Assembly: GCA_001775995.1 (NCBI GenBank)
Contig: MEZH01000004.1
Location: forward strand, 50,313 to 114,312
DNA length: 64,000 nt
Direction: 5' to 3'
Origin: Candidatus Bathyarchaeota archaeon RBG_16_48_13
GTDB lineage: Archaea; Thermoproteota; Bathyarchaeia; RBG-16-48-13
Shown here: in pieces, positions 3,459 to 63,628 of the stretch
Layout of the letters: each line of letters starts with the position of its first letter
How positions within the stretch are numbered: the first letter of the stretch is position 1
The notes under the pieces: model-generated
Told to the model about the DNA's origin: nothing
Databases searched by the model: none
Seen by the model: the letters and a program-made list of their open reading frames with translations, nothing else
Translations under genes and position numbers: made by a program

Positions 3459-4568
3459 TTGCACGAAATATCACTCCACAATGTCAAGAAGAGATACGGG
3501 ACTATTACGGCACTTGATGATGTCAGCTTTGATATTGAGAAGGGAGAATACGTTACGATATTGGGTCCTACGGGCAGTGGCAAGACAACTATTCTAAAGC
3601 TGCTGGCCGGTTTGATAGAACCCAACGAAGGGGAGGTCAGATTCAAGGGTAGAAGAGTAAATGAACTGTGTCCTGAGGAAAGAGACGTTGGATTGGTCTT
3701 TCAGAATTTCATGCTTTTTCCGCACCTTAATGTCTGGGAAAACGTAACTTTCGGCCCACACATGAGAGGATGGGCACGTGAAAAAACCGACAAATTAGGT
3801 CGCCAGATGCTAGATCTGGTGCATCTCTTCAACAGGGCATTGTCATATCCAAATGAGTTGAGTGGAGGCATGCAACAGAGGATCGCTCTAGCTCGAACTC
3901 TGACACCAGGTTCCAAGATAATGTTGATGGACGAACCCCTTGGAGCATTGGATGCCAGATTAAGGGTAGAGTTGCGATATGAGTTGGTCAGGTTGATGAA
4001 GGGTCTAGGCATTACGACAATTCACGTCACTCATGACCAAGAGGAGGCCATGACTATCTCAGATAAGATAATGGTCCTGAGGAGAGGGAAGATTGAACAG
4101 ATCGGCGCGCCGATGGAACTCTTCTTGAGACCGAGATCAATCTTCGTGGCGAATTTCGTTGGCGAATCAAACTTCATAGAGGGGATAATCAGTGAAATCA
4201 AAGATAGCTTCTTGAAAGTAGAGTTGAAGGATGGGCTGACTGTAGTAGTCCCGTCGGTCGACGGCGCAGCTTTGGGAGAGAGGATAGTCATTGCACTGAA
4301 GCCCGAAAATGTCTCAATCCAGAAGGGCGTGACAAAGGGGATCAACCACATACAGGGGGTCATTGAGAGGAGGAGTTTCTTAGGTACATTCGTAAAATAC
4401 TCTGTCAGGCTGGAAACCGGAGATTTGATCAACTCAAAAGTCCTCACCCTGCAAAAGGATAAGACATTAGAAATGGGTGACAAAAGCACCGTTTCATTCA
4501 GATCCAACGAAGCAGTCGTATATCATCACCCCAAAGATGGCGTTCGGCGGGAGTTGGAGGTGGAGTAG
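3459..4568 (+). CDS. ABC transporter ATP-binding protein (PotA/FbpC-like with C-terminal TOBE-like domain)
   Basis: Walker A GPTGSGKTT, signature LSGGMQQR, Walker B IMLMDEPLGALD, and HVTHDQEEA. Confidence 0.9.
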   Translation: MHEISLHNVKKRYGTITALDDVSFDIEKGEYVTILGPTGSGKTTILKLLAGLIEPNEGEVRFKGRRVNELCPEERDVGLVFQNFMLFPHLNVWENVTFGPHMRGWAREKTDKLGRQMLDLVHLFNRALSYPNELSGGMQQRIALARTLTPGSKIMLMDEPLGALDARLRVELRYELVRLMKGLGITTIHVTHDQEEAMTISDKIMVLRRGKIEQIGAPMELFLRPRSIFVANFVGESNFIEGIISEIKDSFLKVELKDGLTVVVPSVDGAALGERIVIALKPENVSIQKGVTKGINHIQGVIERRSFLGTFVKYSVRLETGDLINSKVLTLQKDKTLEMGDKSTVSFRSNEAVVYHHPKDGVRRELEVE

Positions 4569-9880: not shown

Positions 9881-10813
9881 CTATAGGTAGACGTGGATCA
9901 TCAATCGACTTATGAGTTCCTTGTAACGATTTCTGATAGTGACTTCAGTCACATTCGCTATCTCCGCTATTTCTCGTTGGGTTCGATGTTCGGATGCTAA
10001 TACCGACGCGATGTAGGTGGCTGCTGCAGCTATTCCGGTTGGGCCTCGTCCTGATGTCAACCTGATGGAGGAAGCAGTCTGGAGGATTCGAAGAGCCACA
10101 TTTTCGACCTTACCGGCCAAACCTAACTGATTGGCAAAGCGAGATACATAGTAGTTTGGCGTCAAAGGTGGAATGAAACATTCTAGCTCCTTTACTATGA
10201 AGCGATAGCTACGTCCGATCTCCTTCTTGTTTATGTGAGAAATGGTCGAAATCTCATCAAGCGTCCTAGCCACTCCGCACTGTCTGCAAGCCATGTAGAG
10301 AGCAGCAGCAGTAACGCCCTGTATCGAGCGTCCTCGAATCAAGTGTCTTTTTACAGCCCTTCTATATATTACGGACGCGGTCTCCAAGATGTTCTTGGGC
10401 AAATTTATAGCGGAAGCCATCTTGCTCAGTTCTGACAAAGCAAAAGCCAAGTTGCGTTCAGTGGCATCTGAAACTCTTACTCGTCTCTGCCACTTCCTGA
10501 GACGGTAGACTTGAGCCCTCTGACCTGGAGTGAGATTCTTGCCGAAGGTATCTTTGTCCTGCATATCGATCATGGTTGACAAGCCCTTGTCGTGAATAGA
10601 GAAGGTCATTGGCGCACCGACACGGGCTCTTCTAGCTTTCTGCGCATCGTCAAATGCTCTCCATTCTGGTCCTGAATCGGTCAAACGGTCAGCAATGACA
10701 AAACCGCAATCTCTACAGACAACTTCGGCCCACTCGTAGTCCCTGATGACATTTGTGCTCTTGCACTCAGGGCATTCTTTGACCCTGCGCCTAGATTCTA
10801 TCTCTTCTTCCAA
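9881..10813 (-). CDS. tfb: Transcription initiation factor B (TFB)
   Basis: N-terminal Zn ribbon CPECKS...CRDCG followed by two cyclin-fold repeats. 310 aa. Confidence 0.95.
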
Positions 10814-11073
10814 GCCCTTCCGCCCCGTTTCTTCTCTTGAGCCAATTTGTAGAGGATCTGTCCCACATGATAATCTGGTGTGGCCGGTCTTACAGAAATG
10901 TAGGGATTATTGATTGGACCAAACAGGTCCATGACAATACCGATTCTCTTTAGCGACTTATCAACGACCATATCACCAGGAAAAGCGTTGTTCTCTGCTC
11001 GTAGGATTAGATTATTGCTTCCAGTTGATTTATGAAGAACAGCCCCCAGCCGAAATAAGCGATCAGGATACAA
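10798..11073 (-). CDS. gar1: H/ACA RNP subunit Gar1
   Basis: [19 protein letters not shown] type motif (here [19 protein letters not shown]). Conserved tfb-adjacent position. Confidence 0.85.
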
Positions 11074-11140
11074 GAGAACACCGTAGCTGTAAAATAACGT
11101 TGATGACTCGTCCTATTAATATAAGGATTTCTAACGACTC

Positions 11141-11455
11141 TTATTGCTTCAAATTGACGACTTTTTCCTTAAAAGACTTCATTTCTTTGGCTATATTTGA
11201 AATAAGAACAGATTTCTTGCTTTTTTTGTCTACCAATACGTTTCCAGCTTTTTCCCAACAAAAACGCGGATAACGCGAGTTTTTTTCTTCTACCGGGTTC
11301 AATCCAAGTCTGAGAGCGGCTCCATACATGTCCTGAACTTGGGGGTATTCCATGGCCAATGCCTTGTGTATTCTCCTACCATCTCTCCGGGTCTTAGAAG
11401 AATCGAAGTAAACGGGCCAAAGGATATACTTGTCCTTTGACTTCGTGGGAATCAA
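11141..11455 (-). CDS. srp19: Signal recognition particle protein SRP19
   Basis: ILWPVYFDSSKTRRDGRRI signature. 104 aa. Confidence 0.9.
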   Translation of the reverse strand: MIPTKSKDKYILWPVYFDSSKTRRDGRRIHKALAMEYPQVQDMYGAALRLGLNPVEEKNSRYPRFCWEKAGNVLVDKKSKKSVLISNIAKEMKSFKEKVVNLKQ

Positions 11456-11464
11456 CCGCCTAAT

Positions 11465-11866
11465 CTATTCATGAGCCTTTCTCAGAATCGCATTAAGTAC
11501 GCCGTCTACTCCTGGTTGAGAAGTTATTTCCGCTTCACCCAATTCTGTCTCTATTAAGGCGCCTTTGGTTATTACTCCACGCCTGTTGTAATCTATGTTG
11601 GCAGGATTCCTAAGGAATCTGAGTATCGGAACCTTCGTTGTCTTCTTGGTTGCTGGGTCAGTCACGTTTGCTTGGTCAGCCGTCTTAAGTCTATATTTGA
11701 CGTTTCCACCCATGGCTCGGACAACTTTGAGGTCAGTCTCACCTATGATCGTCTCGGCCGGAAGGCTGCCTATCTCGTAACTCCTCTTTCTCCTATGAGA
11801 GCGAGTTCTGCCGCCAGTTCTTTTTCTTTTTAGAAGACCGCCGTGCCATTGGGGCATCCATTTCAC
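11465..11866 (-). CDS. rps8e: 30S ribosomal protein S8e
   Basis: WHGGLLKRKRTGGR...RRKRSYEIG N-terminus and VRAMGGNVKYRL. Confidence 0.9.
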   Translation of the reverse strand: MKWMPQWHGGLLKRKRTGGRTRSHRRKRSYEIGSLPAETIIGETDLKVVRAMGGNVKYRLKTADQANVTDPATKKTTKVPILRFLRNPANIDYNRRGVITKGALIETELGEAEITSQPGVDGVLNAILRKAHE

Positions 11867-12114
11867 CTTGAGATTTGGCTTAGCTTTCTCAAGGATGTGA
11901 TATAAACCTTTTCTGAGATCTTAGGAGTGCCAATTCGTTCAGCTTCAAAGAGAGGGTACTAGTTTTGAACGGAGAGAAAATAGGATTGAAGCAAAATCTG
12001 TCAATTTGCTCAGAATATGAGCAATTCCGGGGGTGCTGTTGTGTCGCTCCTCTTCAAATAGGTTACTGACCCAATCAGAATCTTGCTTGCCGACAATCAA
12101 TGACTTCGTGGCGG

Positions 12115-12747
12115 CTAAGGGACTTCTGTTACTTCGGGAAGCGAGGTTTCTCGGCGAAGCTGAAGCTGTCTCTTCATTTGGCGCAGATCATGGCTCAAGC
12201 CAAACAAATCAGCGAAGACGTCCGTCGTTCTTATTATTTTGGTTCTTCCCAGTTTCTCCGTTTCTATCAGCCCCATTTGGTGAAGGATTTTTACATGATC
12301 GTAGGCTTGAGGACCTCGGACGTTGGCTACGTGGATCTGAGCCACGGGCTGCTTGAATGCGATGTAGGACAGAGTCTTCAGTGGACCAGGCGTCAGGAGA
12401 GGGCTCATCGCGAGTCTCTTGATATGATCAGTGAATTCAGGTTTAAGCTGCATCACAAACCTGCCATCAGGGAGTTCAAGGATCTCCAATGCTAGCTCTC
12501 TATTGGCATACTCTTGGAGCAAGGCTCTAGCCAAACTTTGAACCGCTTTCTTTGAGTGGATATCCAAGATCGAGCAAAGAGTTCTCAATTCAAGCGGTCT
12601 GCCGGCCGCGTATAGTGCCGCTTCTACAATTGCCAAATTCTTTCTCGTTTGCTCAGGATCTGCCTGTTTTTCAGACACCAGCTTCGCCACCCTGTTTAGG
12701 CATTGATATGTATATTTCGCCGAACTCTTCATCCTGCCAAAGGGCAA
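12115..12747 (-). CDS. scpB: Segregation and condensation protein B (ScpB)
   Basis: AIVEAALYAAGRPL motif and tandem winged-helix architecture. The start is uncertain because the ORF overlaps the scpA end. Confidence 0.8.
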   Translation of the reverse strand: MPFGRMKSSAKYTYQCLNRVAKLVSEKQADPEQTRKNLAIVEAALYAAGRPLELRTLCSILDIHSKKAVQSLARALLQEYANRELALEILELPDGRFVMQLKPEFTDHIKRLAMSPLLTPGPLKTLSYIAFKQPVAQIHVANVRGPQAYDHVKILHQMGLIETEKLGRTKIIRTTDVFADLFGLSHDLRQMKRQLQLRRETSLPEVTEVP

Positions 12748-13348
12748 GTCTTTCCCGGGTAGCCAAGAACAGAAGGATTATGAATGTCCGCACAATGTCG
12801 ATTCGCTCCATGTACCTAGATAATTCCGAGAAAAGTACCATTTTCTTCTCCTGAAAGAGTGCAAGAAGCCTTTCGAAGAGACTTTCTATGTGAGAATCGA
12901 TATCAACCAAAAATGGATCCAAGTCCTCAAGGATGGTTGGAGCGGGCAAGAGCGGTTTCAGCACAGGTTCTCTCAATATGGAGAGTTCCATATTAAGGGC
13001 ATCGTCAAGCGCTTTGAGGAGTTCTTCGACCGAAGTCGAGGATAAGGCGTGTCTGTAGGGAAGCTTAATCAAAGGTGGAAGATCTTCGAATATTCTCGCA
13101 TCTGGCGGGTGAGGAGGGTCCTCCATCTTAAGAATATCGTCGGATTTCATTCTATATATTGTGGCGGATGATAGAAGAGCGGTGCCCGAGGCTGTGAAGT
13201 CCATTACTCCATGCTTTCTCATCTCGTTCAGGAATGAATTCAGCAGGAAAGATAAATTCACGTCCCATGGTCTTAGTCTTTGAAGCCTTATTATGTCAAA
13301 TAGAATGAGCCACGGTGGCTTGAACCAGAAAGGTTTCTCATCGCTCAA
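12671..13348 (-). CDS. scpA: Segregation and condensation protein A (kleisin ScpA)
   Basis: Kleisin-like N-terminus (LFDIIRLQRLRPWDVNLS). Located between smc and scpB. Confidence 0.8.
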   Translation of the reverse strand: MSDEKPFWFKPPWLILFDIIRLQRLRPWDVNLSFLLNSFLNEMRKHGVMDFTASGTALLSSATIYRMKSDDILKMEDPPHPPDARIFEDLPPLIKLPYRHALSSTSVEELLKALDDALNMELSILREPVLKPLLPAPTILEDLDPFLVDIDSHIESLFERLLALFQEKKMVLFSELSRYMERIDIVRTFIILLFLATRERLALWQDEEFGEIYISMPKQGGEAGV

Positions 13349-16300
13349 GTCCCAGTATAGCCCCCAACGATCTCCTTTTCCACAGCCGAGGGCAGATTAA
13401 TGGATGCAATATGTGAGTGCCCGCTTTGGATGAAGACCCCAAAAAGCCTTTCTGCTCGGGCAACCACGACATCTTTCAGAGTTATGACCACGAACTGTGA
13501 CATTGCTGATCGGTCTTTGAGAAGGTTTGCGAGCCGCTCAGCATTAATAGGGTCTAGTGAGGCGTCAATCTCATCGAAGAAGTAGAACGGCATGGGCTTG
13601 AAGGAGTGAAGTGCGAAGATGAATGAGACTGCTACCACGGACTTCTCACCTCCGCTAGCCCCGCTGATCAAGCGTGGAGCCTTACCCGTAAACTGTGCAA
13701 ATACGTCGAGGCCGCCACTAAAGGGATCCTCTGAATTCTGGAGCTGGAGCCAAGCATTTCCTCCGCCTGTAATTAGAGTGAAAAAACTCTGGAAACTTTC
13801 GCTAATCTTCAGGTAAGCGTCCATGAAGGCATTCTTCTTTTTTCTCTCTATCTCCTCTACGAAATCTAGAATTGAGCGCTTCTCTCGTTCCAGCTCGTTT
13901 ATTCTGATGGAGAGCTGTTTGTAGTTGCCTATTTGTTCAACGTATTGCCTGATAGCCAATTGGTTTACTGAACCCAACTTTTCGAGTTCGAATCGGACAA
14001 GGTTAAGAATCATATCAATGGTGTTAGCCACTTCGGGTTCAACTTCGAGAGGTCTTTGGTAGCCAAGGGACATTAGTTGCTCTTCCATAAATCTCATCTT
14101 GGCAACCTTGCCTTGTAGGTCGAGTTCCAACTGATGGTACGTGTTGCTCAGAGGCTCATAAGTTGTGTTCGTGGATCTGAGTCTCCCGTCAATCTCGGCT
14201 AATTCCTCTTCAAAGCGATCTTTTTCCTTCCTGACTGAGGAGAGAATTGCGGTTAGTCGCTCCTGTTCTTTCTTCAGGTCTGGAAGCCGCTGCTCAGCGG
14301 TCTTCATGGAGCTTGTAGCTTCTTCGATACGCGATTGCAGGCTCATTATCTGCTTTTCAAGAGACCTGATCTCTATCTGGGCTCTCTCAAGCTCAGGTCT
14401 ATACGTTATCTGGAGACTGTTCTCTAAGATGTTCAGTTCACTATCGATTCTGGAGAGGCGTTCTTGGAACGAGCTAACTTCAGATAAATGAATGGATTTT
14501 TGGGATTCCAGCTTTGATATGAATGACCTTTTCACTCCTAGGGCTAGTCTCCTTTGCTCTTCCAGCAACTGAGCCAGACGTTTATCGAACTCAGCTTTCT
14601 TCTTCTTTATATCAGCTTCATCGGATTTTTCTTTCTCAATAGATCTTCTGAATTTTTTGACCCTCTTATTTGCTATTGAGACGTTTCTTGCGGTCCTGGA
14701 TATGCTTTCCCTAAGGGTGCTGATCTCTCGATCCAAGGCTTCGAGGAGGGCTTCTCTCCTGATTTGATCCTGGCCAAGCTTCTCCACCTCACCAGCCAAG
14801 CTCTCGGTCTCGTTCCTTCTTCTCTCCAGAAGGCTCTGGAGAACATTCACAGTATCATCCAGGTTCGTGAGGGAGACATCGCTTGGGATAAGTGAGAGAA
14901 CATCCACGGGCGTCCTGTAGTAGCCGCTGACAAGACCTCCTCCCAACTCATAGATATCGCCGCTGAGTACGACCGTTCTATATCCTAGCTTTGATGCTAT
15001 CAAAGCAGCTCTCTGGTTCTGGGCTATTAGGGTGTCACCAAAAATGAATTTTACGGCTGGTGAATATTTCTCAGGGAAATCAATAAAGTCCAGTACCTTT
15101 CCAAGTATGCCCTCCATGACAGGAGGCTCAACAATCTCAGGGTTCTTTGAAAGATCTTGGAGCGGGATCAGCTTTATCTGGCCAATCTTGATTCTCTTCA
15201 GGCTCTCAATGCACTTGGCAGCCGTCTCCAGATCCTTGACTATGACACTGTTCATCCACCCGCCTGCAGCGGCATCCACGACCGATTCATAGCCCTTTTT
15301 GGACTTCACGAACTTTCTGAGCCGCCCGTATATGTCCGGAATTGCCCCGGCTTCTCCCATATCCTCAATTTCCTTCAGGGCTTTCTCCTCTGAAGCAATA
15401 TTATCAACGAATTCTTTCTGTGCATGGAATTCCGTCATAGACGCTCTAGCTCTGGATGCGATCCGATCAGCTTCCAAGAGTTCTTGTCTTGTGGTCTCTT
15501 TCGACAGAGATTTCTGCGCTATCGAATCCGACGCTTCTTTCAAGGAGTCATCTTCCTTGTCTCTTAGGGCACCGATCTCTTGGAGATGAATCTTAAGATC
15601 CTTGAACGCTTCCTCGAATTCGGACCGTCTTAACTCCAGATTATTCAAATTTTCTTCGAGTATCTTGTAACGGGTTGCGCTGCCTTTCAATGAGGAATTG
15701 ATCTTCACTAGTCGTTGATTTATATCATTTATTTCTTCTTGCGACTCTTCTCCCTTACCCTCTTTATTACTCAGTGATTGTTTCAGTTCCGCCTCTTTCT
15801 TGGACATTTCCTCAAGGGATGAACGTCCCTTTTCATACTCTGGAAGGAGATCATCACGCTCCTTATGCAAGACCTTTATTCGCTTAGTTTTTTCATCTAT
15901 GTCAACTTTTATAGAGTTGATCTGCTCAGATCTCCCCTCTCGCATCTTGATTAGAGCTCTTAGACTTATGCCTCCCGACTCTATCTCATTCTTTAGCGCT
16001 GTAATCTGAGAAGAGAGCTCGCCCATGGTTCTCTGAGCCATGAAGAGTTGTTCACCCCCCTTGGCCGAGACTTCCTCATCGAATTCTCTCCTTTCGGACT
16101 CCAGCTGATCCCTTCTTGACTCAAATTGTTCTCTTGCTTTTTTGAGTTCCTCGATCTTGTCTTTTCTCAAAGCGATATTTCTATTGAGTTCGTCCAGATC
16201 GCTCTGGAGAGATTTCATTTTGAGAGAGAGCTGTATGGCTTGAGACTTCTTCAACTCTGTCTGCATGAAGTTGTACCGGAGCGCATCGTTCCTCTCTCGC

Positions 16301-35129: not shown

Positions 35130-35244
35130 TGGGGAGGCCGGGATTTGAACCCGGGATCACCAGCGCCCCAGGTTCCCCGCGTTTTTTGAACGCTCTGGAA
35201 TCCTGTTGGCGGTCTGAACCTTGACCAAGCTAGACTACCTCCCC
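35130..35244 (-). tRNA. tRNA gene with a roughly 40-nt insertion in the anticodon-arm region; anticodon unresolved (candidates Pro-GGG or Trp-CCA)
   Basis: Sense strand has acceptor GGGGAGG/CCTCCCC plus A73, D-arm GTCT-AGCTTGGTCA-AGGT, and T-arm CCGGG-TTCAAAT-CCCGG. 52 nt lie where 12 are expected. Confidence 0.8.
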
Positions 35245-58436: not shown

Positions 58437-59216
58437 TTGGAGCCCTTGGAAGTTCTTCTTAGACCATTCAGGATAGCGGACCTTGATCAAGTGCACGAAA
58501 TTGAGAGGCATTCCTTCCCAAAGCCCTGGCCAAAATTCTCTTTTGTGGTCTTTCATTACAAAGAACCCGATGGCTTCCAAGTCGCGACTTCGAATGATCA
58601 GATCATAGGCTATGCGATCATGGCGACTGAAAGGGCTAGAATTGCGCCTCATGAGCGGACGGCGCACCTGGCGAATTTGGCTATTCATACAGATTTCAGA
58701 CAGAGGGGTATAGGAAGAAGACTTGTGGAGACCATGATCGCATATGCCAAGAACATGAATGCTCACGAAATCACTCTGGAGGTCAGCATTCATAACGGCG
58801 TCGCAAGGGATCTATACTGTAAATTCGGCTTCGTTGAAAGGAAGACTATTAGGGGATATTATGGGAAGAGAGAAGACGCCATTCTCATGGCCAAGAGGTG
58901 CTTAGAGAGGGAAGACAAATATTCCTCACCAAATATAGGAGTGCTTATGGCTAAGAAGGAGGATATTCGCGAAAGAGTCGAGACTGTACTCAACGAATTA
59001 ATTAGACCTAGCCTAAGGGCGGACGGGGGAGACATTCAAGTCGTAGACGTTAATGAGGATAAGGGTATCGTGAAGTTGAGACTTATGGGCCAATGCACCG
59101 GGTGCCCAATGTCCGGGAACACGTTCTATAACATGGTCGAGAAGACTCTGAAGGAGAAAATCCCGGAAGTCAAATCTGTGAGACAAGTTTCTTGGGGACA
59201 GTATCTGGAAGTGTAG
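58437..59216 (+). CDS. GNAT N-acetyltransferase (RimI-like) fused to an Nfu/NifU-C domain
   Basis: The RQRGIGRRL acetyl-CoA motif lies in residues 1-165. Residues 171-259 carry IRPSLRADGGDIQVV...GQCTGCPMS. Confidence 0.8.
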   Translation: MEPLEVLLRPFRIADLDQVHEIERHSFPKPWPKFSFVVFHYKEPDGFQVATSNDQIIGYAIMATERARIAPHERTAHLANLAIHTDFRQRGIGRRLVETMIAYAKNMNAHEITLEVSIHNGVARDLYCKFGFVERKTIRGYYGKREDAILMAKRCLEREDKYSSPNIGVLMAKKEDIRERVETVLNELIRPSLRADGGDIQVVDVNEDKGIVKLRLMGQCTGCPMSGNTFYNMVEKTLKEKIPEVKSVRQVSWGQYLEV

Positions 59217-59560: not shown

Positions 59561-60070
59561 GTGAGAAGCTTGGAGAAGAAACTGACAGTTCAGGCAAGGT
59601 TTGAAGGATCAGATGTTGTTACATTTGAAGGTGACGCCGATGAAGTGGCAAAAGCCTTTCTCAAATTCCTTTCCCAAGTGTACCCTTCTTTTGACCTCCT
59701 CAGAAGGCTGACTATTACGGTAGATTTGGAGGATCTTCTGAGAAATGCAGAGGGAGTCTTTGCCTTTTCAGAGAGGGGTCCAATTGTGCTCACGACCAAG
59801 TCTAGAATGTCAGATAAGGACGCAGTATTGATTCATTTGACGAGACAATACCTGGCCGAGAGATTAGGGAGAAGCCCGAGTTCTTCTATGTTGTTGGAGG
59901 AGCTTTCCACAATAGTGGGTAAGAGATCCAAGACCGTTTCTGCCCGGTTAGCTGAATTGATGTCTTCTTGGTATGTCGAGAAAATTGGTAGAGGGCAGTA
60001 TGGTATCCTTCCAGCGGGAATAAAATACGTGACCTCTGCAATATTACCGGCGTTGAAGGGAGGAAAATGA
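59561..60070 (+). CDS. Hypothetical two-domain protein, paralogue A (small N-terminal domain + C-terminal winged helix)
   Basis: 169 aa. Alignable along its whole length with the next ORF. GTG start downstream of an ATAAAAAGGTATTTTT box. Confidence 0.6.
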   Translation: MRSLEKKLTVQARFEGSDVVTFEGDADEVAKAFLKFLSQVYPSFDLLRRLTITVDLEDLLRNAEGVFAFSERGPIVLTTKSRMSDKDAVLIHLTRQYLAERLGRSPSSSMLLEELSTIVGKRSKTVSARLAELMSSWYVEKIGRGQYGILPAGIKYVTSAILPALKGGK

Positions 60071-60570
60071 GCGACAAGCCACGCCTTACCGTGAAGATAC
60101 AATATGATGGGTTCTCCGAGGATCTCTCCGGAGAATTCGATGACGTTGCCCGCCAAGCGATGAAGTTTCTCTATGATATAGCCCCAAAACTGAGCATCCT
60201 AGATAAATTGAAGCTCACCGTGGAAGACGATGAATTAATCGAAGAGTTAGGTTTGGTCATGAAGATAGCCCCTGAAGGCCCCGTATTCCTGAAGGATTTC
60301 AAAGGGATAAAGACTTCCGACGCGATAATCAGCTATCTAGTGGGAGCTAGTCTTGGTTTCAGACTTGGAATATTGTCCAAGCCTGCTCTCTCGATCGATC
60401 AACTGTCGATCTACACTGGGGCTGGAAAAGAAGTTGTTCGAGCCCGACTGAGCGAACTGAACCGCTCTTTGATGGTAGAGACAGTTGATTTAGGTGAGAA
60501 GAGGATAACCACGAGCGGGTTATTGAGATTCAAAGATCATATCTTACCTAAGCTGATAGAAGAAGACTAG
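60067..60570 (+). CDS. Hypothetical two-domain protein, paralogue B
   Basis: 167 aa. ATGA start/stop overlap with paralogue A. Shared LTV...G..D.VA...KFL...GP..L...V.ARL.EL...ILP.L pattern. Confidence 0.6.
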   Translation: MSDKPRLTVKIQYDGFSEDLSGEFDDVARQAMKFLYDIAPKLSILDKLKLTVEDDELIEELGLVMKIAPEGPVFLKDFKGIKTSDAIISYLVGASLGFRLGILSKPALSIDQLSIYTGAGKEVVRARLSELNRSLMVETVDLGEKRITTSGLLRFKDHILPKLIEED

Positions 60571-60976
60571 TTGGCGGTTTCTTCTGAATGTAGTTGTAGT
60601 GGCCCTTCATCCCTTGCCTGGTCAGCAAGCCTTCTCTCACGAGATCTACCAAAGTATGGGCTATGGCAGTTCTGTCATAGTTGTACCCCCTCCGAGACAG
60701 CTCTGTATGCACTTCTGATAGATTCCGAGCTGTGCTGAACCATCCTTCTGACCAGAATCCTTTGACTAGGTCAGACACAAACACCTTCTTGTGGGGGGTG
60801 GATTCCGGACTGGACCCCAGAGGCAGGCTACTCGGAGTGGAAGCGATTTCTTTGCTTTCCAAAGCTGAAATGAAATTCTCTACCGCTGCCTTGAGCTGAT
60901 CTGGCTGACAAGATATTTCGGCTTCTACATTGCCTATTTTGATCTTGATGTGAACAGTTCGTTGCTGCTCAGCCAA
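60548..60976 (-). CDS. Hypothetical protein, paralogue C (similar N-terminal domain + winged helix)
   Basis: 142 aa. TVHIKIKIGNVEAEISCQPDQLKAAVENFISAL resembles the A/B N-termini. The C-terminus AIAHTLVDLVREGLLTRQG is winged-helix-like. Confidence 0.55.
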   Translation of the reverse strand: MAEQQRTVHIKIKIGNVEAEISCQPDQLKAAVENFISALESKEIASTPSSLPLGSSPESTPHKKVFVSDLVKGFWSEGWFSTARNLSEVHTELSRRGYNYDRTAIAHTLVDLVREGLLTRQGMKGHYNYIQKKPPTSLLLSA

Positions 60977-61053
60977 TGATGCTTTTCTCCGACGGTGTTG
61001 AGTGAATATTCAATGATAGTGGTGCACAACGCTTATATACTTTTGACCAACCC

Positions 61054-61090
61054 TATTGATTGTTGATTGCGCAATCAATACTATTGATTG
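61054..61090. promoter_or_regulatory. Operator-like cluster of three TATTGATTG 9-mers (direct, inverted, direct) around the palindrome TTGATTGCGCAATCAA
   Basis: Copies at 61054-61062, 61072-61080 (inverted) and 61082-61090. The palindrome spans 61063-61078. The cluster lies between a TTATATA box (61033-61039) and the ATG at 61117. Confidence 0.6.
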
Positions 61091-61116
61091 TACAACGAAA
61101 ATCAAGGTTGTTGACA

Positions 61117-62202
61117 ATGCAAGTACTTGAAAACACAATGCAGTTCCACGATGAACTAATGAAACTCAGTCAAGATTCTCTGTCCGGTGTCAGAAATTGT
61201 CGGGTAGTCTCTGATAAGACCGATCCGTCAGACATGAGTGTGAGCCACGACAATGAGCCTTGGATGGAACTCAATCTGAGCCGTGAAAACGCAGCAATCA
61301 AATCAATCCCTATACAGTCTGACCCTACAGAAACTACAATTGTTGGCATCGACACAACAAACGTTGATCTGGGAGAGACGAATGAAGGCGGTTTATTCGC
61401 GCTTCGGGGGACAGTGGTGTGGGCCCAAAACCATCACTATAATCTGACGCGTTACGGTCCCTTCATAGTATTCGCGACGGAGAAGAATAAGCAGGTCCTT
61501 TACAACACTCTTGCCGCGAATTTACTGTCAATCAGGCAAACGTACAGAGCGCCAGACCGCCCTTATGTTTCAAACGCTTTTCGCGCCATTTTCGAGCGAG
61601 CTCTCCAAAGGAATGTATGCGGGAAATTCAGGAACGCCGTAATCCTTTGGGATGGGTCTCTGACCGTTTGGACGAACGATCCAACTTATTATGCGACACA
61701 ACGGATCCTAAGAGACGCGAGAGAAAACGGCAACACCGTCATGGGGCTCTCCAAGAAAACCCAGCTCTATGTAGGCGACAGATGCATCACCGATCTCATA
61801 GATGACGGATGTTCGCCCTGCATGATCCCCTTGAGCTTCGTCACCAAATCTGGTGACGAAGAGGCTGTCAGGTCGTTTGGGAGAGTCTACGTAACTAAGC
61901 TTGCTGCAGGGTCTTGCACGTTCAGGTTCGATATTGACAGGGAACTAACAGAAGAGCAGGGGTTGATAGGGGTGAGACGTCTGATAGGCAATGACCTAAT
62001 CATCGAAAACTATCCTGAAACGTTGAGACTAGCTCACATATTTTCCAGATTCACGGCAACCGAAGTTATAGGTCTTCAAAGATATGTATCGGAATACTAT
62101 TCCTTTCGTATTTCAAAAAGACCCGATGTGAGGCACATAATATTCGGTCCGTTCGGGGGGAGACAAATCATGGAGGGGCCAGCTTATGATGCGGTTGTAT
62201 AA
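61117..62202 (+). CDS. NurA-domain nuclease-like protein
   Basis: IVGIDTTN, VILWDGSL (DGS at 61651-61659), and NYPETLRLAHIFSRF motifs. The ORF track starts at the TTG at 61060, but the ATG at 61117 is more likely. Confidence 0.7.
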   Translation: MQVLENTMQFHDELMKLSQDSLSGVRNCRVVSDKTDPSDMSVSHDNEPWMELNLSRENAAIKSIPIQSDPTETTIVGIDTTNVDLGETNEGGLFALRGTVVWAQNHHYNLTRYGPFIVFATEKNKQVLYNTLAANLLSIRQTYRAPDRPYVSNAFRAIFERALQRNVCGKFRNAVILWDGSLTVWTNDPTYYATQRILRDARENGNTVMGLSKKTQLYVGDRCITDLIDDGCSPCMIPLSFVTKSGDEEAVRSFGRVYVTKLAAGSCTFRFDIDRELTEEQGLIGVRRLIGNDLIIENYPETLRLAHIFSRFTATEVIGLQRYVSEYYSFRISKRPDVRHIIFGPFGGRQIMEGPAYDAVV

Positions 62203-63628
62203 GATCGAGAACGGCACCCTCCAAATCCTTAGTTGCCCTCCTGAGGGATTGAGGAGAGGAGATTATCTGCTTGTCGAAGACGGCGGCAAGGCGCTGATAG
62301 CGCACATCATCGATGTGGCGTTCGCGAACGTTCCGGGCATCATGGAAGATCTCCTCAGAGACTTATCAGGTCTAGACATAGACGCCGAGGATGTAGACCC
62401 GCTCAATCTGAAGTCCTACCTCAATCAGGTAAGGGATGCACAGCTCTACATCTGCAAGGTAAGAGGAACACTGTCGCAAGAAGGGCTCAGCTCCGACGTT
62501 TCTTGGATTCCGTCGAGGTGCACCGCCAAGATCGCTAAGATTTCAGACGAGAAAATTCTAAAAATGGTTTCACCCGACGACTCCATGGCAATAGGACTGG
62601 GCTTCACAAGAAGTGGCGCCGAGATCGCCATCAGCGCTCACTCCATAGACGGAAAGTTGAACATAATCACCGGAAAAAAAGAGTCTGGAAAATCCAACTT
62701 CTCAAAACTCTTGATGTTAGGGCTCATAGACCATGGTGGCAAGTGTATCGTTTTTGACGTGAATGGCGAATATACGAAGCTGGGATTCAATAAAGATGGG
62801 ACCCAAAACAAATACTACGAAAAAGTGGTGGTTCTGACCCCAGGTCGCAATTTCCAGACCGCTATTTCCTATGTGGGGATTCGCGTTGTCTTGAATATCC
62901 TCAGAACTGTGTTTGATCTTCCAGAAACCTCAGCTTGGGAGTTCAGAAGGATTTGGGAGAGCCTCGACAAAAAAAGTGTCCCCACATTGCAGAGTCTAAA
63001 ACAAGCGATAGAATCTACTCAGAATGAATTCATAAAGGACGCGTTGATCAGAAGGTTCGACGGACTCATAAACTCAAGTCTATTCACTGACGACCCCAAG
63101 CTGACCACGACGCTTGAGGATCAATTCAAATCGATCCCGAAGGGCGGAACTCTGGTGATAAATCTCAGAGAATTGCCCCAAGTATACAAGAGACTGGTTG
63201 TAGAGTTCGTCCTAAGTAAGCTCACGGGTCTCTTGGAGAGATGGACGTTAAGAGGGGTCTTCCTCTTCGCAGAAGAAGCTCATTTGTATCTTAACGACAC
63301 GTATTGGGAAGACATAGTAACAAGGATGCGGCACTTGGGAATATTCACGACGTTCATAACCAATCAGCCAGACAGCATAAAACAGGCGATTTACCGGCAG
63401 GCAGACAACGCATTTCTTTTCAACTTCACCAACGAAAATGATTTGGAAACAGTTTCAAAGTCATCGAAAATAGATGTGGAAACCGTGAAGATATTGGCTC
63501 GAGAGTTGCCACCGCACCATTGCTTGATTCTCGGCAAAGCGACAAGTGACTACCCCATGGTGGTGAAGATAAAAGCTCTCAATGTGTCGACATTGGGGGA
63601 AACACGGTTCTTCTTTGGCAATAATTAG
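62186..63628 (+). CDS. HerA/DUF87-like P-loop ATPase
   Basis: HAS-barrel-like N-terminus, Walker A GKKESGKS (62672-62695), and Walker B VFLFAEEAH. 17-nt overlap with the nurA-like gene. Confidence 0.75.
   Translation: MMRLYKIENGTLQILSCPPEGLRRGDYLLVEDGGKALIAHIIDVAFANVPGIMEDLLRDLSGLDIDAEDVDPLNLKSYLNQVRDAQLYICKVRGTLSQEGLSSDVSWIPSRCTAKIAKISDEKILKMVSPDDSMAIGLGFTRSGAEIAISAHSIDGKLNIITGKKESGKSNFSKLLMLGLIDHGGKCIVFDVNGEYTKLGFNKDGTQNKYYEKVVVLTPGRNFQTAISYVGIRVVLNILRTVFDLPETSAWEFRRIWESLDKKSVPTLQSLKQAIESTQNEFIKDALIRRFDGLINSSLFTDDPKLTTTLEDQFKSIPKGGTLVINLRELPQVYKRLVVEFVLSKLTGLLERWTLRGVFLFAEEAHLYLNDTYWEDIVTRMRHLGIFTTFITNQPDSIKQAIYRQADNAFLFNFTNENDLETVSKSSKIDVETVKILARELPPHHCLILGKATSDYPMVVKIKALNVSTLGETRFFFGNN

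Follow-up and report, generated by a model that had tools for sequence, protein, structure and literature searches.

The 64,000-nucleotide stretch of Candidatus Bathyarchaeota archaeon RBG_16_48_13 analyzed here (contig MEZH01000004.1; hereafter the window) carries, at positions 59561–63628, three genes for small winged-helix proteins, termed A, B, and C, and two genes for a NurA-family nuclease and a HerA-type ATPase, termed NurA2 and HerA2. An earlier note, made from the letters of this DNA, had described the group as a self-contained, locally regulated nuclease–translocase module with dedicated DNA-binding accessory proteins and had proposed three functions for it, namely a defence system, a plasmid- or virus-derived maintenance module, or a divergent repair system. 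Open reading frame (ORF) calling agrees with the five genes, coordinates, and overlaps given there, and the locus is laid out as follows.

59561–60070, plus strand: protein A, from the uncharacterised A/B family, in which a beta-beta-alpha module at the N-terminus is joined through a middle segment to a winged helix at the C-terminus.
60067–60570, plus strand: protein B, a paralogue of A, coupled to A through ATGA.
60548–60976, minus strand: protein C, a predicted regulator with a winged helix, divergent from nurA.
60977–61116, no strand assigned: shared control region, with a conserved element at 61023–61039 and three copies of TATTGATTG(T/C) at 61054–61091.
61117–62202, plus strand: NurA2, a NurA-family nuclease with its fold assigned by AlphaFold2 (AF2) and Foldseek and with invariant D-E-D-H residues.
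62186–63628, plus strand: HerA2, an FtsK/HerA-type ATPase with a DUF87 domain and a full-length match to 4D2I.

The ORFs of A (169 amino acids) and B (167 amino acids) overlap by 4 nucleotides (ATGA), the start of B coinciding with the stop of A in a translational coupling of the two genes. C (142 amino acids) is convergent with B, with which it shares 23 nucleotides. The longest ORF of the nuclease gene spans 61060–62202 and begins with a TTG at 61060; the ATG at 61117, which yields a protein of 361 amino acids, was taken as the start because homologues measure 361–366 amino acids. The HerA-like ORF encodes 480 amino acids, and its start at 62186 against the nuclease end at 62202 bears out the 17-nucleotide overlap reported earlier. 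The motifs quoted for the nuclease (GIDTT, LWDGSL, and YPETLRLAH) and for the ATPase (GKKESGKS and LFAEEAH) are likewise present.

A search of the PDB sequences with a profile of the NurA2 family found no solved NurA, and structure prediction was therefore needed. The AF2 model (predicted local distance difference test, pLDDT, 78.7; predicted template modelling score, pTM, 0.82) displays a NurA-type RNase H-like/PIWI-like fold, its top Foldseek match in the PDB being NurA of Sulfolobus solfataricus (2YGK; E 2.5e-8; template modelling score, TM, 0.46/0.51). Further matches comprise TdpB, the NurA proteins of Thermococcus kodakarensis (9X1L_G) and Pyrococcus furiosus (3TAZ), and 1ZUP, with EndoV and the Argonaute PIWI domain ranking lower. 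Four residues, D79, E160, D179, and H307, are invariant in 31 NurA2 family sequences, and we take them to be equivalent to the published metal-binding catalytic residues of NurA. Aligned by hhalign, the NurA2 motifs WDGSL and YPETLRLAH lie opposite VDGTL and YPYGLVDAD of NurA1, a more canonical protein encoded at a related locus (L005, accession CP070745.1). The Pfam NurA model (PF09376) gives NurA2 14.8 bits (E 0.02), below its gathering score of 21; it matches 23 of the 31 relatives at E < 0.01 (best 7.7e-8), and NCBI already labels several family members NurA.

HerA2 matches the Pfam family DUF87 with 47.8 bits (cut-off 23.2; E 2.5e-12) and the HerA of S. solfataricus (4D2I) over its full length (E 2.2e-9), residues 53–472 aligning with 42–470 of 500. 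The motifs TG.K..GKS (162–170), FL.AEEAH (359–366), and NQPD (393–396) are invariant among the members from Bathyarchaeia and Nitrososphaeria. With the HerA equivalogs of NCBIfam, HerA2 reaches 25.8 bits, where 800 and 970 are the cut-offs. The HerA1 of the second pair present at L005 likewise falls short of these cut-offs with 101 bits, and in the Thermoproteota HerA model the HerA2 of L005 scores 32 bits and that of the window about 26; the NCBIfam HerA models are evidently drawn too tightly to cover this phylum. The NCBIfam CedD model also matches, far under its cut-off. Among the PADLOC models the best match is mad8 (E 9e-18), with HerA models at about 1e-11, and the Sir2-HerA structure 8J4U is matched at E 2e-4. 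The signals from the family libraries are weak, but they agree with one another. As judged from sequence and predicted fold, NurA2 is predicted to be an active NurA and HerA2 an active HerA, both very divergent.

When each GTDB species was represented by a single genome, a scan located NurA2 relatives in 423 species genomes; the 80 inspected are Bathyarchaeia or unclassified Thermoproteota, and all strong homologues come from Bathyarchaeia metagenomes or metagenome-assembled genomes (MAGs). Homologues of C led in addition to MAGs labelled Nitrososphaerales, Thaumarchaeota, or Geothermarchaeota. In these Nitrososphaeria-type genomes, a second C-like gene, termed C′, and an A/B gene are convergent with C, and C is divergent from nurA-herA, as in Bathyarchaeia. 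Between the two groups, C is 44–47% identical, HerA2 41–43%, and NurA2 25–27%.

The order of genes was followed in 83 related loci (designated by L numbers), in which ORFs were called and clustered with a tblastn cross-check. The genes nurA2 and herA2 adjoin in every locus whose contig runs past nurA2 (about 70 of 82). Of the 76 loci with enough upstream sequence, 71 have a C-type gene next to the pair, 64 of them in divergent and 7 in co-directional orientation. Within 5 kb upstream of the nuclease gene, A/B-type genes occur in 34 of 56 loci, 30 of these 34 carrying at least two copies, and in 16 of the 56 C′ heads a C′-AB-AB operon of overlapping genes. A six-gene co-directional operon, AB-AB-AB-C-nurA-herA, is found in L002, L007–L011, and L013, whereas four loci (L066, L071, L073, and L081) carry A/B genes without C. 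Recurrent neighbours are gatD/gatE and a Nudix hydrolase gene. The small genes are thus syntenic with nurA-herA over two archaeal classes, which agrees with the proposed locally regulated module with dedicated accessories; the contrary outcome entertained in the earlier note, that they would not be syntenic in relatives, therefore fails.

Two further observations concern these neighbourhoods. In 23 of 58 loci (for example, 12352–12798 on the minus strand of L015), herA2 is directly followed by an antisense gene for a Nudix hydrolase of about 150 amino acids, which often lies between herA2 and mre11-rad50. In the Bathyarchaeum clade (L014, L020, L021, L023, L025–L027, L030, L042, and others), no A/B genes are found nearby, and an unrelated winged-helix gene of about 83 codons, HTH_45-like by its sequence pattern, is convergent with C; L088 has a Pfam-annotated HTH_45 gene at the equivalent position.

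The pair had been called stand-alone, and searches of the window by tblastn indeed gave no mre11, no rad50, and no second herA or nurA; nor do the 7–8 kb flanks of the closest relative, L001, contain mre11-rad50. Among 58 related loci, however, there are 11 in which herA2 is followed by mre11-rad50 at a distance of up to 5 kb, usually with the antisense Nudix gene in between, and 10 of these 11 loci have no second pair within 10 kb. The term therefore holds for the local gene order and not in the sense of a separate kind of system. The earlier note had itself considered that the genes might prove to be the orthodox pair of the lineage with mre11-rad50 nearby; this is largely what the relatives display, without adjacency in the window or in L001.

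The remaining linked locus, L005, carries a second, more canonical nurA-herA-mre11-rad50 cassette (10751–15071) directly after nurA2-herA2, and the two pairs are barely alignable (31% identity over 70 amino acids). HerA2 of L005 is 85–87% and NurA2 80% identical to the proteins of L022 and L038, whereas its Mre11 is 27–28% identical to theirs, which are 89% identical to each other. The low identity of Mre11 beside the high identity of HerA2 indicates that the second pair came with a foreign mre11-rad50 cassette and suggests xenologous replacement of the native mre11-rad50 in L005. The tandem arrangement in L005 had raised the option of the window pair being a surplus paralogue, a reading that was rejected after the Mre11 comparison. 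As read from these sequences, the native order in the clade of L005, L022, and L038 is nurA2-herA2-(nudix)-mre11-rad50, and NurA2-HerA2 is most simply taken as the HerA-NurA of the lineage itself.

The three small proteins had been described as paralogues. For A and B this is clear from BLASTP (30% identity over 159 amino acids; E 8e-21), whereas C lacks BLAST similarity to either and joins them only as a remote homologue. When family alignments built from the related loci and searches were compared (A3 with 46 A/B sequences; A2 with 42 C sequences), hhalign returned a probability of 95.7% (E 9.5e-9) over 120 columns spanning the N-terminal module and the winged helix. C is accordingly a remote paralogue of A and B without their middle segment. 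Its predicted N-terminal module and winged-helix C-terminus are borne out by this alignment and by the AF2 model, which consists of a beta-hairpin plus helix (8–41), a disordered linker (42–62), and a winged helix (67–131; pLDDT 84–89). Foldseek matches the winged helix to generic regulators only (domains of Fur, BlaI, and ArsR, the TM to target reaching 0.81), and no match covers the beta-hairpin and helix, so that the N-terminal module was modelled without a structural counterpart in Foldseek. The predicted recognition helix and wing of C are near-invariant (D101, A104, H107, L109, L112, V113, R120, G122, Y129, Q131, and K132).

By hidden Markov model (HMM) comparison, the A/B family alignment matches solved winged helix-turn-helix regulators, namely CooA (E 3.9e-4), the iron-dependent repressor-related protein 4O5V, and PH1932, and is weakly similar to the partition protein AspA (E 0.046). 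A word-indexed search for homologues of A returned three close relatives only, and an exhaustive profile search was used instead; among 1.84 billion proteins it found 308 A/B clusters at 50% identity. Annotations in the family are just hypothetical proteins or predicted regulators, and none of A, B, and C matches a Pfam family above threshold. As far as these searches reach, the A/B/C family is confined to Bathyarchaeia and Nitrososphaeria-type archaea. Four A/B members exceed the usual length two- to threefold (P0246, 535 amino acids; P0271, 369; P0284, 376; P0353, 326) and are possibly fusions of tandem paralogues or read-throughs of gene calling.

The interval between C and nurA2 measures 80–100 bp and is strikingly conserved. 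In the window, the nurA TATA box lies at about 61033–61040, and directly downstream of it stand the three TATTGATTG(T/C) copies at 61054–61063 (plus), 61071–61080 (minus), and 61082–61091 (plus), the palindrome TTGATTGCGCAATCAA included, which substantiates the repeat-rich operator described earlier. Two of the copies are exact TATTGATTG, and no others exist in the 64 kb; TGCACAAC is, like TATTGATTG, a candidate binding site within 60977–61116. The conserved element of the window, TGCACAACGCTTATATA at 61023–61039, corresponds to the B recognition element (BRE) and TATA box of the nurA promoter and is the sole match in the window, where 0.07 are expected by chance; there is no further BRE/TATA element of this type in the 64 kb, and no regulon is seen within them. 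When no more than two mismatches are allowed, ATGC[AG]CAA[CT]A[CT]TTA[AT]ATA has a single match in each of about 70 related loci, which together make up 1.35 Mb; this match lies just upstream of nurA2 in nearly all of them, one Nitrososphaerales locus included. Over 65 Bathyarchaeia species, the element has a major-allele frequency of 0.95, compared with 0.78 for the 45 nucleotides on its upstream side (consensus CCTTATTGTTTATTGTATTG.GCAT..TG.TC) and 0.53 for the 45 nucleotides on its downstream side. The window contains no match to TTATTGTTTATTGTATTG, the consensus of the Bathyarchaeia-wide 18-mer upstream repeat. Since the element overlaps the BRE/TATA position, a protein bound to it would control initiation, and since it is co-conserved with the recognition helix of C, C is proposed as a dedicated regulator of nurA-herA, an assignment we infer from conservation.

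Other repeats accompany the A/B operons of other lineages. In L007, L009, L010, L011, and L013, three to four tandem TTAACGTTA palindromes lie upstream of the first A/B gene, just 5′ of a TATA-like box; these arrays of the six-gene operons are an operator other than that of nurA. In many species, CGTAAATTCTAAAAGG is located about 30–60 nucleotides upstream of the first gene of C′-AB-AB or AB-AB operons (L033, L041, L045, L048, L050, L051, L053, L055, L072, L076, L079, and L084).

The composition of the locus is that of its host: the region has a guanine-plus-cytosine (GC) content of 0.44–0.47 against a window range of 0.43–0.50, and both the GC content of third codon positions (GC3) and the codon-usage distance fall within the values seen for the 49 other long ORFs of the window, so that a foreign composition was rejected. 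The flanks are common with L001, a relative at 59% identity, and comprise an AIR-synthase-like gene, CCG- and LUD-domain genes, an acetyltransferase gene, and NifU upstream and, downstream, a gene of beta-lactamase fold, which in the window is the metallo-beta-lactamase-fold gene starting behind herA at about 63844. The conserved neighbourhood is free of integrase and replication genes and of other genes of mobile elements. Scanning IMG/VR viral contigs with the nuclease alignment gave no NurA2 relatives, and tblastn of PLSDB plasmids with the ATPase gave no HerA2 relatives. Against PHROGs, only generic P-loop matches were obtained, for the ATPase alone. PADLOC yielded no match for the nuclease, B, or C and a marginal AbiEi match for A (E 0.015). 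Judged by these comparisons, the module is chromosomal and vertically inherited. Of the three functions proposed in the earlier note, only a divergent repair system fits; neither a defence system nor a plasmid- or virus-derived module finds support in the 423 species genomes with their conserved housekeeping flanks, the empty viral and plasmid searches, the host-like composition, or the PADLOC results.

Two details of the window stand apart from the module. At 58437–59216 (plus strand), a single ORF of 259 codons joins an N-acetyltransferase domain and a NifU-like domain, which L001 carries as two genes (3755–4225 and 4270–4539). At 35130–35244 (minus strand), a match of 115 nucleotides to the Rfam tRNA model (37.8 bits) covers all 71 model positions; ARAGORN reports no tRNA in the window, and the match is probably an intron-containing archaeal tRNA.

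It seems fairly likely, though well short of certain, that the locus represents the highly divergent HerA-NurA of Bathyarchaeia itself, equipped with a promoter under the control of C and engaged in the processing of DNA ends or breaks. The last part follows from the position of the pair directly upstream of the native mre11-rad50 in relatives, which makes DNA end or break processing its most likely role. If the pair works like the HerA-NurA complexes of solved structure (PMC12977600), HerA2 would, as a hexamer, move double-stranded DNA at the expense of ATP and feed it to a NurA2 dimer, whose D-E-D-H sites would cut the strands, and the 17-nucleotide overlap of the genes would fit synthesis of the two proteins as one complex. 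Expression would be run from the short bidirectional region between C and nurA, where C would bind the conserved element over the BRE/TATA of nurA and, in this genome, also the three TATTGATTG repeats downstream; such binding would keep a potentially dangerous nuclease–translocase repressed until it is needed. A and B probably pair through the N-terminal beta-beta-alpha module that they share with C and may act as co-regulators, DNA-binding partners, or subunits. The analysis shows what the genes encode, their folds and catalytic motifs, the synteny, the vertical inheritance, and the conserved promoter element; the assignment of proteins to sites, the direction of regulation, and the cellular role are inferred.

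Several points weigh against this interpretation and lend substance to its rivals. The assignment of the element to C is circumstantial, and the co-directional operons in which three A/B genes precede C and nurA-herA, as well as the four loci with A/B genes but without C, fit structural partners at least as well as regulators. It is conceivable, though clearly less probable than the HerA-NurA pair with a C-controlled promoter, that A, B, and C do not act primarily as transcription factors but belong to a five-component machine as its DNA-binding subunits or adaptors, recruiting or gating HerA2-NurA2, for example as a heteromeric end-recognition or loading module; such a role would be compatible with regulation. 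In line with it, C and HerA2 are far better kept between the two classes than NurA2, the six-gene operons recur in several lineages, as does the three-gene C′-AB-AB operon with its overlapping genes, and the N-terminal module common to A, B, and C is predicted with low confidence, as expected for an oligomerization surface. However, a divergently transcribed C, an operator-like element, and a repressor-like winged helix constitute the classic signature of a local regulator, and A/B genes are absent or several kilobases away in many loci, with none within 5 kb in 22 of 56. A more specific version, in which A, B, C, and also C′ form a heteromeric winged-helix complex integral to HerA2-NurA2 for DNA recognition or gating, is slightly more doubtful still. 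A further objection is that a second, canonical herA-nurA may exist elsewhere in the genome, the search having covered the 64-kb window. NurA2-HerA2 would then be a functionally distinct second pair, as in Pyrobaculum, where three or more nurA-herA pairs occur. Thermoproteales are known to carry several paralogous pairs (PMC3396285). The low score of HerA2 with the NCBIfam equivalogs, set against that of the second-pair HerA of L005, and the coexistence of two barely alignable pairs in L005 speak for this reading, which is nevertheless unlikely, given that the extra pair of L005 travels with a foreign Mre11, that almost all mre11-rad50-linked loci have no second pair close by, and that NCBI names several NurA2 members NurA.

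The function of HerA-NurA is itself disputed: according to a 2026 study, the T. kodakarensis complex by itself breaks down both strands of DNA, and the authors cast doubt on its part in end resection (PMC12977600). A defensive role has lately been suggested even for the canonical complex (PMC12977600), and the best PADLOC match of HerA2, mad8, and the structural proximity of NurA2 to the defence nuclease TdpB (8WFD_G; E 4.8e-8; TM 0.51), about as close as that to Sulfolobus NurA, also tell against the repair-type interpretation. A HerA-plus-nuclease defence against viruses or plasmids, with TdpAB, Sir2-HerA, or DUF4297-HerA as its relatives, is nonetheless improbable. The pair is distributed vertically and class-wide among housekeeping neighbours (gatD/E, nudix, and mre11-rad50), no Sir2, DUF4297, or modification gene recurs among these neighbours, and TdpA is not among the PDB sequence matches of HerA2; the PADLOC results for the other four proteins, the native composition, and the lack of relatives in IMG/VR and PLSDB point the same way, and the defence module was rejected on distribution and context. 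Least probable by far is descent from a plasmid or virus, the genes having served there in maintenance or partition before they were fixed in the chromosome. HerA-type ATPases are related to viral packaging ATPases, HerA2 has a terminase-like PHROG match (E 2e-13), and the A/B family resembles AspA weakly. However, this candidate was dismissed, since the viral and plasmid searches were empty and the PHROG matches generic, and it is further opposed by the native codon usage, the syntenic flanks across species, and a neighbourhood free of mobile-element genes.

The cellular role of HerA-NurA being unsettled, it is of interest that an uncultured class and part of its sister class keep a divergent HerA-NurA together with a private winged-helix family. 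The new parts are this family and the nurA promoter element, whereas the HerA-NurA pair itself is of a known kind. The near-invariance of the promoter element, down to the nucleotide, and the winged-helix family point to regulatory or specificity factors that have been missing so far and are open to direct testing. The annotation of the locus is corrected as well: rather than a defence island, it is a native repair-type pair of Bathyarchaeia, and the small genes labelled hypothetical belong with it. Should A, B, and C be subunits of HerA2-NurA2, an unrecognized multi-subunit machine for break processing would exist in Bathyarchaeia and Nitrososphaeria-type archaea, and its accessory subunits could provide the selectivity for ends or strands that HerA-NurA alone seemingly lacks.

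The closest known systems are the archaeal HerA-NurA complexes (4D2I/2YGK of S. solfataricus, 3TAI of P. furiosus, and 9X1L of T. kodakarensis), which likewise consist of adjacent, coupled genes for an ATPase and a NurA-fold nuclease. HerA2 shares the HerA-type ATPase with its N-terminal barrel region, the catalytic D-E-D-H residues and the Walker motifs are kept, and linkage to mre11-rad50 is preserved in a subset of genomes; the window pair differs by its extreme divergence, as seen in the NCBIfam and Pfam scores. In Sulfolobales, the gene order is herA-mre11-rad50-nurA. The related loci with linkage instead follow the order nurA-herA-(nudix)-mre11-rad50, and in the window and L001 the two gene pairs are unlinked. 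Dedicated winged-helix genes and a conserved promoter element set the window module apart from the canonical operons; a literature search found no description of the module or of its small proteins, and no report of winged-helix or promoter features of this kind for canonical operons. The winged-helix fold of the C-terminal domains of A, B, and C is also that of the Fur, BlaI/MecI, ArsR/SmtB, MarR, and PadR regulators, and local repressors are typically divergent from their target, as C is from its presumed target nurA, whereas the N-terminal beta-hairpin-plus-helix module distinguishes A, B, and C from such small regulators and has no recognizable match.

TdpAB, which pairs the HerA-like TdpA with the NurA-like TdpB in the phosphorothioation-linked tdpABC system (cryo-electron microscopy structures 8WFD/8WET), is likewise a two-gene module of an ATPase and a NurA-like nuclease. 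Although TdpB is as near to NurA2 in structure as Sulfolobus NurA, HerA2 has no sequence match to TdpA at E ≤ 0.01; no third enzyme or tdpC-like gene recurs beside the pair in the 83 loci, in which no TdpC-specific search was made, and the spread of NurA2-HerA2 is vertical and class-wide rather than patchy. Bacterial antiphage systems such as Sir2-HerA (8J4U), DUF4297-HerA, and MADS with mad8 share the FtsK/HerA-type ATPase core with HerA2. However, its partner in the window is a NurA-fold nuclease rather than Sir2 or DUF4297, the five proteins include no other detectable MADS component and lie outside any defence-island context, and the patchy, mobile distribution of these systems differs from that of NurA2-HerA2. 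The paralogous nurA-herA pairs of Thermoproteales offer a closer parallel, being likewise divergent, vertically inherited, and accompanied by lineage-specific accessory genes (PMC3396285). They include a CRISPR-linked nurA-csm6-herA cluster (PMC3396285), whereas the window pair has neither csm6 nor a CRISPR array nearby and its accessories are winged-helix proteins. Unlike the additional copies of Thermoproteales, the window-type pair seems to be the native partner of mre11-rad50.

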